In this document: in pieces, positions 36,001 through 39,000 of the stretch
Position numbering within the stretch: the first letter of the stretch is position 1
How the letters are laid out: each line of letters opens with the position of its first letter
Assembly: GCA_965205425.1 (NCBI GenBank)
Contig: CBDBGZ010000009.1
Coordinates: forward strand, 864,001-928,000
DNA: 64,000 bases
Source of the DNA: Nitrosopumilus sp.
GTDB taxonomy: Archaea; Thermoproteota; Nitrososphaeria; Nitrososphaerales; Nitrosopumilaceae
Direction of reading: 5' to 3'
Position numbers: made by a program

Positions 36001-39000
36001 ATAACAACGGCAGTTGCTGCAGCAGCCTCAGTGCCTTCTTCGTTTACATCCACAAACGCCTTGTGAATTGCTTGCGAGATATATAGATAATCTTCATCAG
36101 TTATGTTTTTGAAGTTATCCCTAACGTTTTCATCAAATGGTGTTGGCATTCCAAGTTCTATCAACGGATTTATCAGATCATAATTGGTTTCCATTTTGAA
36201 TTTTGGGAAAACTACTATAACTTTTGTTTCTTGCATATTTTCTTTCCATTGTTTTAAATTTTGACTTGTAAGGTTCTCTTCTATGTCCTTAATTCCATCA
36301 ATTTGGATAGGCAATACAACAATCATTGATAATCTATCTCCATCATAAGGCATCTCTAAAACTTGAAATTCATCTTCTTGCAGATAATTAAACGGAGATG
36401 CATCAAGTAACATCATTGGTGTTTTTACTTTTTCTGTAGAATTAAGATGAAAGTCACGATCACGTGTATCTGACTTGTCAAATTGTGTAACCCATGTACC
36501 TTTGAAATAAATTGCATTTGTAATAGCAACACGAGTAAGTTCATTTGTAGAGTCAGGTGCCAAAATGTCTTTGATTTTGTCGTTGGTTTGATCAGATACC
36601 CATTTGTTTATCTTGTCTACACCATCATTGGAAATGAAATCAACTTTGCTTACTTTTGAATGATAATTCTCTTTTGCAGAGTTTACAAATTTTGAATGTG
36701 GTTCTATAAAATCAGCAATCCATAAAGCATTTGCAGTTTGTAATTCGTATTTTGAGTTTTCAGAATTCATGCTGTTGATTACTGACTCAAATCCTTCATG
36801 TCTTTTCTTTTCATCTGCGGAAAAACCAAATACTTCTGCTATCTGGACTAACGCATCACTGCTAGCACCTTCATAAACAATTCCAAATGCAACAAAAATA
36901 CTCCAAGGTGAGAAAAATACATTGTCATCATTTTCTTTTATGATTTGGCGATAAAAGTCAAATGCAAAATCATTATTCTCAGATATTGTGTATTCAGAAG
37001 AGGGAGTTGGAACATATTCATAATTTAATGAGAGACTCGTCACGTCATCAATATTGTTGCTTGTGAACAAGACAATTCCAGTTACAGAAATACCAACTGT
37101 GATTGCAATGATAAATAGAATGTTTCTATTAATCATGAAAAATATCCTCTTTCAGTTATTATAAGCATTGATAAAAATTGAGTTTTACCTAAAATTCGGT
37201 TCCCCTTACACATGTGCAACACCGTTCACAATTAATGTTGTTGAGAAAATGTTAATTAGAAATTCTGTAATAGAAAAGTCGTCAGGGTCGCATAACACGG
37301 TATTGCGATGGTCTGAAAAACCATATCTGTTTCCACGGATCTGTGGGTTCAAATCCCATCCCTGACGGGTTTATAATATTTGTACGGGCATGGTCCTTTA
37401 AAAGTTTCATTGTTTTGTCGCATTTGTTCCAAGAACGGTTCATTTTATTTTAGTTTCACCCATTTTTTCATATCCTGTGTAGTGATTGCATCCCCGTGTG
37501 GCAGCCATCCTTCTCTTGGCGTACGACAATTCATCTCTAGTTTTCTGTGATTCCATCTTGTGGCACCGACACATTTCTCAATTAGTTGCCACATCTCTTC
37601 AGGTTTTTTTGAATGACTCTTTGGGATGTATTTTGACTTTATGACGGTTTTATCAGATAACCCAAACGCCGGAACATCTCCGCGAATTCCAATGAGCAGG
37701 TGTTCTGTGACATTGTTCATCCAATAGCCGCCCCATCCACTCTTTTCTTCCTTTGCCCATGTTATGATGCATTTTGGCATGAATCCGTGGCAATGCATTA
37801 CAGAAATGGCATCTGATTGCACCTTTTGCTTTTGTAGGATCTCTGAGAGTAGCTCGTTGTCTGATTTATTTTGCTCCTGTAATTTTTTTACCTTGTCTTG
37901 ATTTGTAATCTTTTTGCAAAGGGAATCTAGTTTTTGCTTTTGTAGTATCTCACAGTACTCTGAGATTAACATCGAGCCTGTGATCAGGTGCTGGTTTGTG
38001 CTCCACATGTATAATACGGCATGGTCTGCTGCAATTGTATGAACTGGGATTCTGGCAATGATGTTTGTTGGTCCTGTTTTGTAGTGAAATGATGCGCCGG
38101 ACATACCACTGCCGCCAATGTTCTTGTTTCCAAAGTCCCATCCCGGGTCCTCTACAATGTGGTTGAATTTTCCTGCAGGCAGTGGCGGAATTGGTTTTTT
38201 AGCGTTTTCTACAGCCATATTTTTCGTGTATGCGGAGTGTAGTGATTTTTCACCAGAATCAAGGGATTTTTTTGTATCATTATCAATATTCTCAAATACC
38301 TTTGCCCTCTTTCGCACTGTCTCCCCGCTCTCTTTTAGGATTTTTCCAATTTTTTCATTCACACTTTCTGATGTGTGATCTGAATCTTTGGATAAAGTCG
38401 TATTTTTCAAGTCAGTGCGCTTTCCCTGATGCGTATGTTCCTTAAGATATGGCCTGATTCTTTCTGCAAAGTCTGCTTTTTCACTTTCGGTGAAGTCCTT
38501 TCTAAACTCATTTTCAATGATCTCAATTTTCAAATCATACGGGACGTTTCTTAGGATCTCTGATCTGGACAGTTTGCTCTTCAAGATTGCTTTTTGATTA
38601 TTGCCTCAATTGATGTCAGTTGCAATAATTTACATGCATCCAGTCTCCTATTGCCTGCAAGAAGCTTGTAGGTGTCATTGGTGTTTTTTCTTAGAGTTAT
38701 CGGTGATAGTAACCCTTCTTCTTTGATGGACTGTGCAAGCTCTGCAATGTCGCCCATGTCTTGTCTGATTCTTTTTTGTACGATGATTTTGGATATTTCT
38801 ATCTTCATCTTATTTTTTAAATGAGAGTTTTGGCAATCTTCCTTCTTCGTACCATGCACCCAACTGATATAGCCAAAAAACTGCGTTTGATATGCCTCCA
38901 AATATTACTAAAGCCTGATAAACGCCACTTTGCTGACCATTTAAAATCCTGTCTGATATTGCAGCAATCATCAAAAATTTTAAAAATACAGCAATCACGA

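Follow-up and report, generated by a model that had tools for sequence, protein, structure and literature searches.

Natural tRNAs in which anticodon and amino acid are decoupled include tRNA-Pro variants of Streptomyces. Bacterial allo-tRNAs with serine or alanine identity insert Ser or Ala at sense and stop codons in E. coli; the available part of that report places allo-tRNA genes near toxin-antitoxin and transposon genes and describes some allo-tRNA-like species as charged yet unused in translation, or inactive (Mukai et al., PMC5389517). Allo-tRNA genes have been assigned to Clostridia, Proteobacteria and Acidobacteria in the accessible sections of PMC7609411, which also give 9/4 and 8/5 as acceptor/T arrangements of tRNA-Sec. 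In humans, the G35A variant of a tRNA-Ser inserts serine where Phe codons stand (PMC12993449, from the portion available). Our literature search found no archaeal example of such tRNAs, and no work that connects variable-arm or mistranslating tRNAs with Nitrosopumilus or Thaumarchaeota.

The window, which is the whole stretch of 64,000 nucleotides of a Nitrosopumilus sp. genome that was analysed, holds a genuine extra tRNA gene conserved in marine ammonia-oxidising archaea. ARAGORN returned a single tRNA for the window at 37280-37368 (+) with anticodon GAA, and Rfam RF00005 matched 37281-37367 at 54.6 bits (gathering score: 29; model positions 1-71 of 71), with a 16-nt insert where the variable arm falls. 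A position-based parse likewise placed the tRNA body, G1 to G73, at 37281..37367 (+), with 0 mismatches in 20 core pairs; together these results bear out the survey's finding of a class-II tRNA with a GAA anticodon. The parts, all on the plus strand, were assigned by the same parse as follows: acceptor stem, 37281-37287 with 37360-37366; D arm, 37290-37306; anticodon stem, 37308-37312 with 37320-37324; T arm, 37343-37359. The anticodon loop CUGAAAA occupies 37313..37319 (+), with GAA at 37315-37317 followed by A37 and A38. The long variable arm of 18 nt (37325..37342, +) was read off the sequence as a 5-bp stem, AUCUG/CGGAU, with a 6-nt loop; its position matches the arms of canonical Ser/Leu tRNAs, and the variable region exceeds 10 nt and forms a stem-loop between the anticodon and T arms, as in class II. 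The discriminator G73 and a conserved G74 lie at 37367 and 37368 (+), with no CCA encoded, and the leader AAAGUC (37275..37280, +), which includes a conserved C-1, can pair with positions 73-78 (G GGUUU), five of the six pairs being formed in this copy. An intron was ruled out as an account of the variable arm, which is a plain hairpin at the class-II position, like that of canonical Ser/Leu tRNAs; as we read the sequence it lacks two 3-nt bulges and is therefore not a bulge-helix-bulge intron. A small antisense ORF at 37282-37443 (-) was also ruled out, because member lengths (81-91 nt) differ by non-multiples of three; the window copy is one T shorter than odd3 within the start region of this would-be ORF, which counts against it too.

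Two further family copies in the genome, at C9:254931-255020(-) and C8:120792-120883(-), were found again at the places previously listed, as were the one canonical class-I tRNA-Phe(GAA) at C2:10466-10540, with A73 and G37, and an Ala-type tRNA 430 nt from the second copy. The genome carries 13 odd tRNAs, all within the anticodon-blind identity classes Ala, Ser or Leu: seven are Ala-type (G3:U70 and A73), four Ser-type (class-II, G73) and two Leu-type (class-II, A73). That all 13 fall in such classes is the expected look of tRNAs whose anticodons have been swapped and that are still chargeable. Three Ser-type and two Ala-type genes with GAA stand against the one canonical tRNA-Phe, and full activity of all five beside it would be hard to tolerate.

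The family is under selective maintenance, in its stems and in its anticodon loop. Conservation was assessed in a parse sample of 27 distinct genus members, which are related to each other, so that counts over members are not independent. Acceptor pairs were formed in 25-27 of the 27, anticodon-stem pairs in 23-27, and all five T-stem pairs were kept, in 22-26; mismatches in the 20 core pairs numbered 0 in 13 members, 1 in eight and at least 2 in six. Elements of the L-shape are retained (U8, G18G19, the T-loop UUCRAAU and a 7-nt anticodon loop with U33), and the variable arm is 14-21 nt long in all 27 members. A model-fitted alignment of 54 sequences, which was fitted to the structure and takes in two canonical tRNAs and four DPANN sequences, had 90.4% of cells paired and double changes at 23 of 25 pairs, a result reached by 0 of 500 shuffles, and its slid controls were 39-46% paired; the compensatory evolution noted in the survey's finding was thereby confirmed. 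The variable-arm helices in this alignment were 58-66% paired, a low value because arm lengths differ. Among the acceptor types are GUCAGGG, GUUGGCG, GUUGGUG, GUUGGGU and GUCGGGG, in each case with a 3' strand to match, and the GUUGGCG clade holds the anticodons GGA (a true Ser anticodon), GAA and GAU.

The anticodon loop, earlier described as invariant, proved to be YUGAAAA in 25 of the 27 genus members, with GAU in the other two; across genera the loop is invariant, with U33, G34, A35, A37 and A38 unchanging, if the GAU and GGA variants are set aside. In sister members the same body is combined with GAU, GGA, CAG, CCU or ACG, GAA being by far the commonest anticodon, and one relative (L076) carries GGA. 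G occupies position 73 in 25 of 27 members and position 74 in 23 (from the -2:74 pair counts). Position -1 pairs with 73 in 23 of 27; the 8-bp acceptor stem formerly proposed from this C-1:G73 pair is inseparable from a longer leader-trailer helix, in which -1..-6 pair with 73..78 in 22-24 of 27, and is not supported as first worded. This pairing reflects mostly conservation, with few changes (U:G to C:G in four members and to A:U in two). The C-1:G73 pairing is also inseparable from a pyrimidine/purine start-site signal.

Within the genus, the family was found in 21 of 151 genomes by BLAST (G000 included) and in 22 of 151 by a covariance model at a cut-off of 72 bits, family members scoring 72-114 bits and canonical Ser/Leu tRNAs reaching about 66 bits at most; the survey had given 19 of 151. 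Members also occur in Nitrosotalea, Nitrosotenuis and Cenarchaeum, and similar class-II GAA tRNAs are present in DPANN archaea. Carrier genomes hold 1-8 copies and include single-contig assemblies (G123, G128, G138, G144, G145 and G147), one of which, G147, has tandem copies about 293 nt apart. Some copies are decayed or truncated: L009b, L006, L023, L019 (which has a D-arm insertion), L030 (the 3' half only), L031 (which lacks the 5' acceptor strand) and three in Cenarchaeum. A viral origin gained no support from a strict family pattern, which matched 0 viral contigs, a weak negative as the pattern is narrow. A looser pattern also caught tRNA-Ser(UGA), whose loop reads CUUGAAA followed by A; most of 90 metagenome loci were such false positives, and 12 bacterial genome loci were assumed to be.

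We compared the family with published identity elements, as given in the available part of an identity review that calls archaeal SerRS determinants poorly known (PMC9976931). There, Ser identity consists of a large variable region and G73; archaeal Phe identity of A73, G20 and C13-G22 with the anticodon bases G34, A35 and A36; and G73 is an antideterminant against archaeal LeuRS (PMC9976931). Both serine marks are present, G73 in 25 of 27 members and the long arm in 27 of 27, together with a Ser-like D arm, GGUA. The Phe marks G34, A35 and A36 are present as well; A73 is absent, U rather than G20 follows G18G19 in the parsed D arms, and the 13:22 pair is A:U or U:U, being C:G in only two of 27. 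The Leu mark A73 is replaced by G73. A37 stands beside A36 in the family, against G37 in the canonical tRNA-Phe of the genome; the variable arms lack the GNRA-capped stems of its canonical tRNA-Ser; and the window copy has GAA instead of a serine anticodon (NGA or GCU). Isotype assignment by overall similarity was ambiguous, the top matches being Trp, Ser and Leu with similar scores. Of the proposal that the tRNA accepts Ser or Leu, the serine part is retained (G73, long arm, GGUA D arm) and the leucine part is dropped, as G73 is an antideterminant; Leu acceptance is predicted to be unlikely, and judged by these marks the charged amino acid fits serine, not Phe or Leu. A search for synthetases in the genome gave five class-II core matches (read by size as Ser, Pro, Thr, His and Gly) and one Seryl_tRNA_N match, beside one PheRS alpha/beta; with a single SerRS and a single PheRS, a dedicated synthetase for the odd tRNA was rejected.

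Flanking sequence was scored with a promoter matrix, a weak one, that was trained on the sequences upstream of 46 canonical tRNAs of the genome. A sense promoter-like box of BRE/TATA type, GAAAATGTTAATTA, lies at 37245..37258 (+), 36 nt before G1, and scored 4.5 (89th percentile of random background); sense boxes of other members match at -34..-37, many of them only at the 20th-80th percentile. An inward-facing promoter-like box, GAAACUUUUAAAGG, at 37395..37408 (-), about 27 nt past the tRNA 3' end, scored 6.1 (96th percentile). It falls within a conserved downstream block of subfamily A (GGUUUAU...CUUUAAAAGUUUCAUUGUU; 37368..37416, +), which was defined by alignment of nine subfamily-A units and has no T run of 4 or more. 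At the mirror position, a box of at least 5 bits is found in 17 of 26 members against three of 46 canonical tRNAs, and analogous inward boxes occur in subfamily B and in the Nitrosotalea and Nitrosotenuis members. This conserved opposite-strand box at a fixed distance revises the earlier statement that no antisense partner exists; it makes a cis-antisense RNA possible, and suggests one running over the tRNA gene.

Similarity between genomes ends about 40-64 nt upstream and 42-70 nt downstream of the tRNA (at 42-57 nt past it in subfamily A), giving a discrete unit of about 180-220 bp that includes a promoter-like box and is found in unrelated contexts; in the L010-L029 pair conservation continues for 180 nt upstream, beyond the supposed unit ends. 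The two flanks are imperfect inverted repeats of each other (A: CATG..TTTTTA / TAAAAAGTTTCAT; B: ACAAAATGT / ACATTTGT). Extension of the leader/trailer helix beyond -6/+78 was rejected, as the complementary blocks are unequally spaced in subfamily B and facing promoters were judged simpler.

The upstream neighbour of the window gene is a serpin gene (35874..37136, -; Pfam Serpin, 1.4e-122). Downstream lies a convergent MT-A70 DNA methyltransferase gene (37445..38584, -; Pfam MT-A70, 2.2e-15) that ends 77 nt after the tRNA and is followed by a ParB_N gene (38581-38901, -; Pfam ParB_N, 9.6e-14). Pfam matches also mark a mobile-element context, with an IS66-family transposase gene at 40073-41413 (-) and an rve integrase-core gene at 42826-43872 (-). 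MT-A70 adjoins three members, the window copy, L005 and L009 (downstream in both of the latter), and Eco57I, ResIII/HSDR, IS66, DDE_3, DDE_Tnp_1, rve and TnpB genes occur near others; a gene of these kinds lies within about 1.5 kb in 12 of 23 other-genome loci. In G113, eight related Ser-type tRNAs (GAA x5, GAU x2, CAG x1) spread over 37 kb are interleaved with HaeIII, MmeI and BglII-like genes and at least six methyltransferase genes. A convergent downstream gene was rejected as a rule, since it holds in only 16 of 23 loci. All three copies of G000 are near transposases, and copy 3 is directly bordered by the end of an IS at -39; IS proximity is weak evidence here because DDE_Tnp_1 alone has 116 matches in the 2.2 Mb genome. 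Neither toxin-antitoxin protein genes beside members nor a conserved protein partner adjoining the units was seen. No tyrosine recombinase matched within 10 kb of any of the three copies, and the window tRNA 3' end (at least 17 nt) has no second copy beyond the full copies and T-arm matches to canonical tRNAs; an attachment site at the window locus was rejected on these two grounds. In the Logan contigs of three sequencing runs (X1, X4 and X5) the locus is present, and the contigs end where the T-arm/acceptor 3' segment is repeated; no joints or indels were seen.

We tentatively read the gene as a naturally occurring missense tRNA, akin to the allo-tRNAs, that would insert Ser for Phe and is probably kept under restraint, a reading with a good chance of being right although it falls short of probable. 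In the scheme that follows, transcription, 5' and 3' ends, serylation, decoding, antisense control and biological role are what we infer. The gene would be an accessory class-II tRNA descended from tRNA-Ser, likely through one anticodon change, GGA to GAA. The single SerRS, blind to the anticodon, would recognise the long arm and G73 and charge the RNA with serine, and the GAA anticodon would read UUC and UUU on the ribosome, placing serine at phenylalanine codons once the RNA is made and charged. As a missense tRNA is harmful if abundant, its level is expected to be low or conditional, and the inward box could give rise to an antisense RNA of full complementarity and to colliding transcription. 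The unit may be a conflict- or addiction-type accessory module outside normal decoding, with a toxic tRNA and an antisense restraint, because units are non-syntenic, patchy, multi-copy, sometimes decayed and often near methyltransferase, restriction-modification or transposase genes, and because each is self-contained, with its own promoter-like box, no oligo-T terminator and an inward box. A more elaborate version, which we hold to be distinctly unlikely as a whole, is a two-RNA conflict module: the Ser-charged, Phe-decoding tRNA would act as toxin and the cis-antisense RNA from the facing promoter as restraint, release would come when transcription of the methyltransferase/restriction island is disturbed (virus attack, element loss), and Phe-to-Ser errors would stop cell or virus, the Ala- and Leu-type odd tRNAs completing a programmed-mistranslation repertoire for defence or addiction.

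A tRNA-shaped RNA acting off the ribosome is a rather unlikely rival. Such an RNA might serve as decoy or sensor for a protein that binds the anticodon loop, be it an anticodon nuclease, a modification enzyme or a viral factor directed against tRNA-Phe, so that a protein and not a codon reads the loop; or else it might donate aminoacyl groups to a non-ribosomal reaction. A loop that stays invariant, A37 and A38 included, while the stems drift is what such a role predicts, as is the siting of members within defence-type islands; a cell could tolerate five non-cognate GAA genes beside a single canonical one as long as none of the five decodes, and the unused or inactive allo-tRNA-like species (PMC5389517, available part) offer a parallel. 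The units, however, have no conserved protein partner alongside, the complete L-shape set is kept (U8, G18G19, T-loop UUCRAAU, U33), and chargeability, not decoy function, explains why 13 of 13 odd tRNAs belong to the Ala, Ser or Leu class. Quite improbable is a second, unusual tRNA-Phe, borne by a mobile element or kept as a spare isoacceptor, which PheRS would charge through GAA despite G73 and the long arm. The family's most conserved bases, G34, A35 and A36, are indeed archaeal Phe determinants in the available text of PMC9976931, and GAA prevails among its anticodons; this reading leaves unexplained the missing A73, G20 and C13-G22 (G73 in 25 of 27, C13:G22 in two of 27), the A37 in place of the canonical G37, and same-body sisters with GAU, GGA, CAG, CCU or ACG, which do not fit selection for Phe charging.

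The decayed and truncated copies (L009b, L006, L023, L019, L030, L031 and the three of Cenarchaeum), the tandem pair of G147 and the integration of thaumarchaeal elements mostly at tRNA 3' ends (PMC6563490, available part) could instead point to a relic without a function of its own, either a tRNA-Ser duplicate drifting to a pseudogene or an attachment site or cassette boundary whose flanks are element ends. We regard this as improbable: 21 of 27 members have at most one mismatch in 20 pairs despite many compensated substitutions, the anticodon loop is invariant across genera, no tyrosine-recombinase match lies within 10 kb of any of the three copies, the 3' end of the window tRNA has no repeat beyond the full copies and T-arm matches to canonical tRNAs, and an attachment site needs the 3' part alone, whereas the 5' half and promoter are conserved as well. 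That the unit of about 200 bp is itself a small, non-autonomous mobile element of MITE/SINE type, built on a tRNA-like core between imperfect inverted ends, appears very improbable. Its discreteness in unrelated contexts, its inverted flanks, an acceptor helix that extends to 13 bp and IS-rich host genomes would suit such an element, but no target-site duplications were recognised, conservation runs past the supposed ends in some pairs (such as L010-L029), copy numbers are low, and two facing promoters of one consensus explain the inverted flanks equally well.

Globally abundant ammonia oxidisers contain a whole set of Ser-type, Ala-type and Leu-type bodies with foreign anticodons, which is shared by several genera and linked to mobile and restriction-modification islands. 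If these tRNAs are charged and used, the cells would possess a built-in switch for Phe-to-Ser mistranslation. This would bear on the natural fixity of the genetic code, on conflict between archaea and their viruses, and on annotation, where genes of this kind are routinely given the label tRNA-Phe. If unused in translation, they would be a new class of conserved tRNA-shaped regulatory RNAs.

Compared with the canonical tRNA-Ser of the genome (GGA, GCU, CGA and UGA), the family shares class-II form, G73, U8-C9, the D-loop GGUA and the T-loop UUCRAAU; the canonical genes differ in GNRA-capped arms of 14-15 nt and a GCNGNGN acceptor, some encode CCA and T-run terminators, and the covariance model separates the two (about 66 bits at most against 72-114). 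Like tRNA-Sec, a SerRS substrate, the family has a long arm and G73, and a 13-bp acceptor/T branch is possible if C-1:G73 forms. Archaeal tRNA-Sec has a D stem of 6-7 bp; that of the family has 3 bp, to which 15 of 27 members add a fourth pair. The tRNA-Sec combination of UCA anticodon, 13-bp branch and long D stem is absent from the family, which has GAA and a 5-bp T stem, against the 9/4 arrangement of archaeal tRNA-Sec (PMC7609411, accessible sections). Eukaryotic anticodon variants of tRNA-Ser, -Ala and -Leu resemble the family in that their synthetases ignore the anticodon, so that one change makes a missense tRNA (PMC12993449, PMC11028032, as far as available), and human tRNA-Ser-AGA-2-3 G35A makes the same swap, Phe to Ser (PMC12993449). 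Those variants are recent single-nucleotide alleles of normal genes, whereas the archaeal family is old, diverged and multi-genus, with its own conserved flanks. The closest likeness is to the bacterial allo-tRNAs, of which the family looks like an archaeal counterpart, its body apparently built for serine and its anticodon for Phe codons. Allo-tRNAs, too, have long variable arms, Ser (or Ala) marks and non-cognate anticodons (a Phe anticodon once); they are patchy accessory genes, some clustered and some decayed, near transposon, toxin-antitoxin or selfish genes, and have been proposed as missense suppressors and/or regulatory RNAs (PMC5389517, available part). Allo-tRNAs are bacterial and are defined by a 12-bp acceptor branch arranged 8/4 or 9/3, against 7/5 in the archaeal family, or 8/5 if C-1:G73 forms; the family thus shows the Ser/Ala marks and non-cognate anticodons of allo-tRNAs in neither of their branch arrangements. 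Unlike allo-tRNAs, it has a single predominant anticodon, GAA, together with a conserved promoter-like box that faces inward, and new here are the discrete unit with its own promoter-like box, the inward-facing box and the methyltransferase and restriction-modification neighbours.

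The single tRNA that ARAGORN called in the window lies at 37280-37368 (+) and has the anticodon GAA, and the Rfam tRNA model aligned to 37281-37367 (score: 54.6 bits; gathering score: 29) with a 16-nt insert at the position of the variable arm. The survey's finding of a class-II (long variable arm) tRNA gene with a Phe anticodon at this site is confirmed and extended. Read from sequence, the gene has an acceptor stem of GUCAGGG/CCCUGAC, U8 and C9, a D arm of GCAU-AACACGGUA-UUGC followed by G26, an anticodon stem of AUGGU/ACCAU closing the loop CUGAAAA, an 18-nt variable arm (AUCUG-UUUCCA-CGGAU plus CU), and a T arm of GUGGG-UUCAAAU-CCCAU followed by G73; the gene encodes no CCA, nor is it followed by a run of four or more T. 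The variable arm forms a plain hairpin in the same place as the arms of the canonical Ser and Leu tRNAs of this genome and is therefore a class-II arm; its interpretation as an intron was rejected.

ARAGORN made 61 tRNA calls on the 2.2-Mb assembly (9 contigs; C2-C9 below are contigs, C9 being that of the window), which include the genes that the survey had named: the canonical tRNA-Phe(GAA) at C2:10466 (A73, G37) and three class-II GAA genes, namely the window copy, copy 2 at C9:254931 (-) and copy 3 at C8:120792 (-). Ten more genes have a body and anticodon in disagreement. Seven of these (72-75 nt) carry alanine marks (G3:U70, A73) with anticodons AAG (2), GAA (2) or GUC (3), and the remaining three are class-II genes: one with G73 and anticodon CCU (Arg codon AGG) at C9:356124-356210 (-), and two with A73, bearing CAC (Val) at C7:71771-71866 (-) and ACC (Gly) at C9:1042184-1042268 (+), the latter with an A:A mismatch in the anticodon stem. 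Outside the window, the Ala-type 72-nt tRNAs (AAG or GAA; C4:165846-165917, C4:166055-166126 and C9:454069-454140) are preceded at about 35-50 nt by a direct, partial duplicate of their own anticodon stem-loop, for example 'cctacctaagaacta' before an AAG gene and 'cctacgtgaaaccta' before a GAA gene, and this copy varies in step with the anticodon. Near-identical flanks were also observed at canonical tRNA genes present twice (Leu-CAA, Tyr-GUA, Ser-UGA, Thr-UGU and Glu-CUC; pairs at C4:242911/C5:29492, C4:215712/C6:2275, C5:45703/C9:1173301, C4:294183/C8:54641 and C4:283174/C9:266829), which, together with a reported contamination of 5.23%, may reflect large duplications or two close strains in the assembly. 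Two calls with long introns, tRNA-Ile(AAU) at C9:489600-491295 (1.6 kb) and tRNA-Leu(GAG) at C9:747883-749142 (1.2 kb), probably represent artefacts, or else tRNA genes interrupted by insertions.

Conservation of the fold was assessed on 27 distinct members of the family, parsed by position so that pairs were not chosen by an aligner (L019, a fetched locus whose D arm has a tandem insertion that disrupts the parse, was left out). Acceptor pairs form in 25-27 of the 27, pairs 3, 4, 6 and 7 switching between Watson-Crick types; pairs of the anticodon stem, for which no fewer than 11 distinct sequences occur, form in 23-27; T-stem pairs form in 22-26; and three D-stem pairs form in 25-26, the fourth in only 15. 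The anticodon loop reads YUGAAAA in 25/27 members and YUGAUAA in 2/27, and N73 is G in 25/27. A covariance model built from the family alignment was used to realign 54 matches drawn from all fetched loci, in which 90.4% of cells are paired and 23 of 25 pairs show double changes; none of 500 shuffles reached this pairing and slid partners give 39-46%, in an alignment that is fitted to the model, consists of kin sequences and includes two canonical tRNAs and four DPANN sequences. G:U pairs on the sense strand (49:65 in 6/27 members, -2:74 in 18/27) show that this strand is the structured RNA.

The unit (tRNA gene plus conserved flanks) was found by BLAST in 21 of 151 genus genomes, this one counted, mostly larger genomes and with up to 5 matches each. 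The covariance model scored members at 72-114 bits in 22/151 genomes, and in no genome did canonical Ser/Leu tRNAs score above about 66 bits. A wider pattern search over one genome per species gave 40 loci, in taxa as filed: 11 Nitrosopumilus, a further identical copy from a contig recorded under a bacterial MAG, 4 Nitrosotalea, 2 Nitrosotenuis, 3 Cenarchaeum (all decayed), 1 Nitrosopumilaceae, 1 Thaumarchaeota, 3 Micrarchaeota, 1 Woesearchaeota, 12 bacterial loci (probably with tRNA-Ser(UGA) among them, as it too matches the pattern) and 1 other archaeon, a false hit. Members from Nitrosotalea and Nitrosotenuis have different acceptors (GGACGGG, GCGCGGG, GGCGGGA, GUAAGGG) and retain the GAA loop and G73, as well as a pyrimidine at position -1. 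Same-body relatives with other anticodons occur in G112 (acceptor type GUUGGCG; GGA, the true serine anticodon, and GAU) and G122 (ACG), and a third subfamily in G113 has GAA (5), GAU (2) and CAG (1). The series GGA, GAA and GAU within one clade suggests that the family descended from tRNA-Ser(GGA) through single anticodon changes. A 10-kb contig of a bacterial Leptonemataceae MAG (L073) bears a member nearly identical to that of G147, shown flanks included, and is probably a mis-binned archaeal contig. G147 itself holds four tandem copies (L079, C1:403000-411000) spaced by about 293, 292 and 158 nt, which decay progressively (105.7, 92.8, 75.7 and 66.8 bits) and are flanked by a PAPS_reduct gene and DUF4326/MT-A70 genes.

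Subfamily A of the units, which includes the window copy and copy 3, is conserved for about 40 nt upstream and 42-57 nt downstream, and subfamily B for about 56-64 nt upstream and 36-70 nt downstream. Similarity of units between genomes stops sharply, and contexts past these limits are unrelated, save between close or duplicated copies. A 14-nt promoter matrix was trained on the sequences preceding 46 canonical tRNA genes in this genome (consensus: GAAAGAGTTTAAAC), where its matches start mostly 36-40 nt before the mature 5' end. Members have a moderate match at -34 to -37 on the sense strand (window: 37245-37258 (+), 89th percentile of random windows), and a box on the opposite strand in mirror position, 38-42 nt beyond position 73 (GAAACTTTTTAAAG in subfamily A, 96th-98th percentile, window 37395-37408 (-); AAATGTTTTTATGA in subfamily B, 92nd-94th percentile). 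With the threshold set at 5 bits, 17/26 members versus only 3/46 canonical tRNA genes had the box on the opposite strand, a comparison that describes rather than tests, the members being kin. At a similar distance, members from Nitrosotalea and Nitrosotenuis carry an analogous block, TAATAT(A/G)TTTTAGA (CTAAAAC-TATATTA when read from the opposite strand). If the facing box is a promoter, it would yield an RNA that starts a few nt past the tRNA 3' end and is fully antisense to the tRNA. The leader AAACUC is able to pair with positions 73-78 (GGGUUU) in 22-24 of 27 members, so the C-1:G73 pair from which an 8-bp acceptor stem had been proposed belongs to a possible 13-bp helix; it may equally reflect a pyrimidine/purine start-site signal, given that the promoter box lies 2-3 nt closer than in canonical genes.

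The window tRNA is flanked by a serpin gene (-) on one side and, on the other, by a convergent MT-A70 methyltransferase gene whose end is 77 nt downstream, beyond which are ParB_N, IS66 and rve genes; the downstream gene was convergent at 16 of 23 loci. A ParB_N gene and a TFIIB paralogue lie side by side (33664-35299) immediately upstream of the serpin gene; taken together with the MT-A70/ParB_N pair and the IS66 and rve genes beyond, they make 33.6-44 kb of the window look like a single mobile island. DDE transposases surround copies 2 and 3, and at -39 copy 3 adjoins an IS end that is repeated more than 40 times in the genome; one IS family of this genome has 22-nt ends that occur over 40 times. 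IS elements are extremely abundant, with 116 DDE_Tnp_1 matches in 2.2 Mb (four in the window at 13579-14022, 22676-23188, 29236-29685 and 50709-51221), and IS proximity therefore means little here. Within about 1.5 kb, 12/23 loci in other genomes have a methyltransferase, restriction or transposase gene (MT-A70 x2, DUF4326 x2, Eco57I, ResIII/HSDR, IS66 x3, DDE_3, DDE_Tnp_1, rve/DDE_Tnp_4 and TnpB) and 11 have none, L011 and L015 among the latter sharing a rhodanese/HIT context. G113 is the clearest case (L074/L075, 187000-226999 on that genome's own contig C2): eight Ser-type odd tRNAs on one strand over 37 kb are interleaved with HaeIII, MmeI and BglII-like endonuclease genes and at least 6 DNA methyltransferase genes. 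The latter include D12 and several N6_N4, and each odd tRNA there has a conserved upstream block of about 65 nt and a TTATTTTTTG terminator.

Our leading, still tentative, reading is that the family encodes accessory tRNAs of mobile and defence islands which would accept serine and decode Phe codons, with antisense transcription probably holding them in check. Passages of PMC9976931 describe serine identity as a large variable region plus G73, independent of the anticodon, archaeal Phe identity as A73, G20, C13-G22 and G34 A35 A36, and, for Haloferax volcanii, G73 as a LeuRS antideterminant, and stress that archaeal identity sets are poorly known. The family has both serine marks and fails leucine identity; of the survey's Ser- (or Leu-) acceptance, the leucine part is unlikely. 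Of the Phe set the family shares the anticodon part and nothing more, with G73, U after G18G19 and C:G at 13:22 in 2/27 members, and we consider an odd tRNA-Phe improbable. SerRS, PheRS alpha and PheRS beta are each encoded once in this genome, which therefore has no private synthetase for the family. A tRNA-shaped RNA with a non-translational role is rather unlikely, though the least so of the alternatives. Two observations count against a confident identity call: serine does not stand out by plain similarity to canonical tRNAs, and the GNRA-capped stems of the canonical tRNA-Ser genes of this genome are absent from the family arms. All 13 odd genes of this genome fall within the Ala, Ser and Leu classes, whose synthetases do not read the anticodon according to PMC11028032, and we take this restriction as our strongest indirect evidence that the RNAs can be charged and that the mismatch is genuine and not a mis-annotation.

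A relic or attachment site is also improbable, to much the same degree as an odd tRNA-Phe. Over 20 core pairs, 13 of the 27 members have no mismatch, 8 have one and 6 have at least two; no tyrosine recombinase was found within 10 kb of the three copies in this genome, and no repeat of the 3' end of the window tRNA marks an island border in it. That the unit is itself a small mobile element we regard as very improbable.

A literature search covering few subscription journals linked neither Nitrosopumilus nor Thaumarchaeota with variable-arm tRNAs, missense suppressors or mistranslation, and the isotype-mismatch passages of the tRNAscan-SE 2.0 paper do not mention variable-arm or mistranslating tRNAs from these groups. 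The closest system described in the sources covered is that of bacterial allo-tRNAs, which, in passages of PMC5389517, have Ser or Ala identity with many non-cognate anticodons, in E. coli act as missense and nonsense suppressors (with some inactive or toxic), and lie near toxin-antitoxin and transposon genes, at times polycistronically. Their defining geometry in those passages is 8/4 or 9/3, whereas the family has a 5-bp T stem. Because this geometry is not found in the family and allo-tRNAs are bacterial, we file the family as one that would work like an allo-tRNA without being one.
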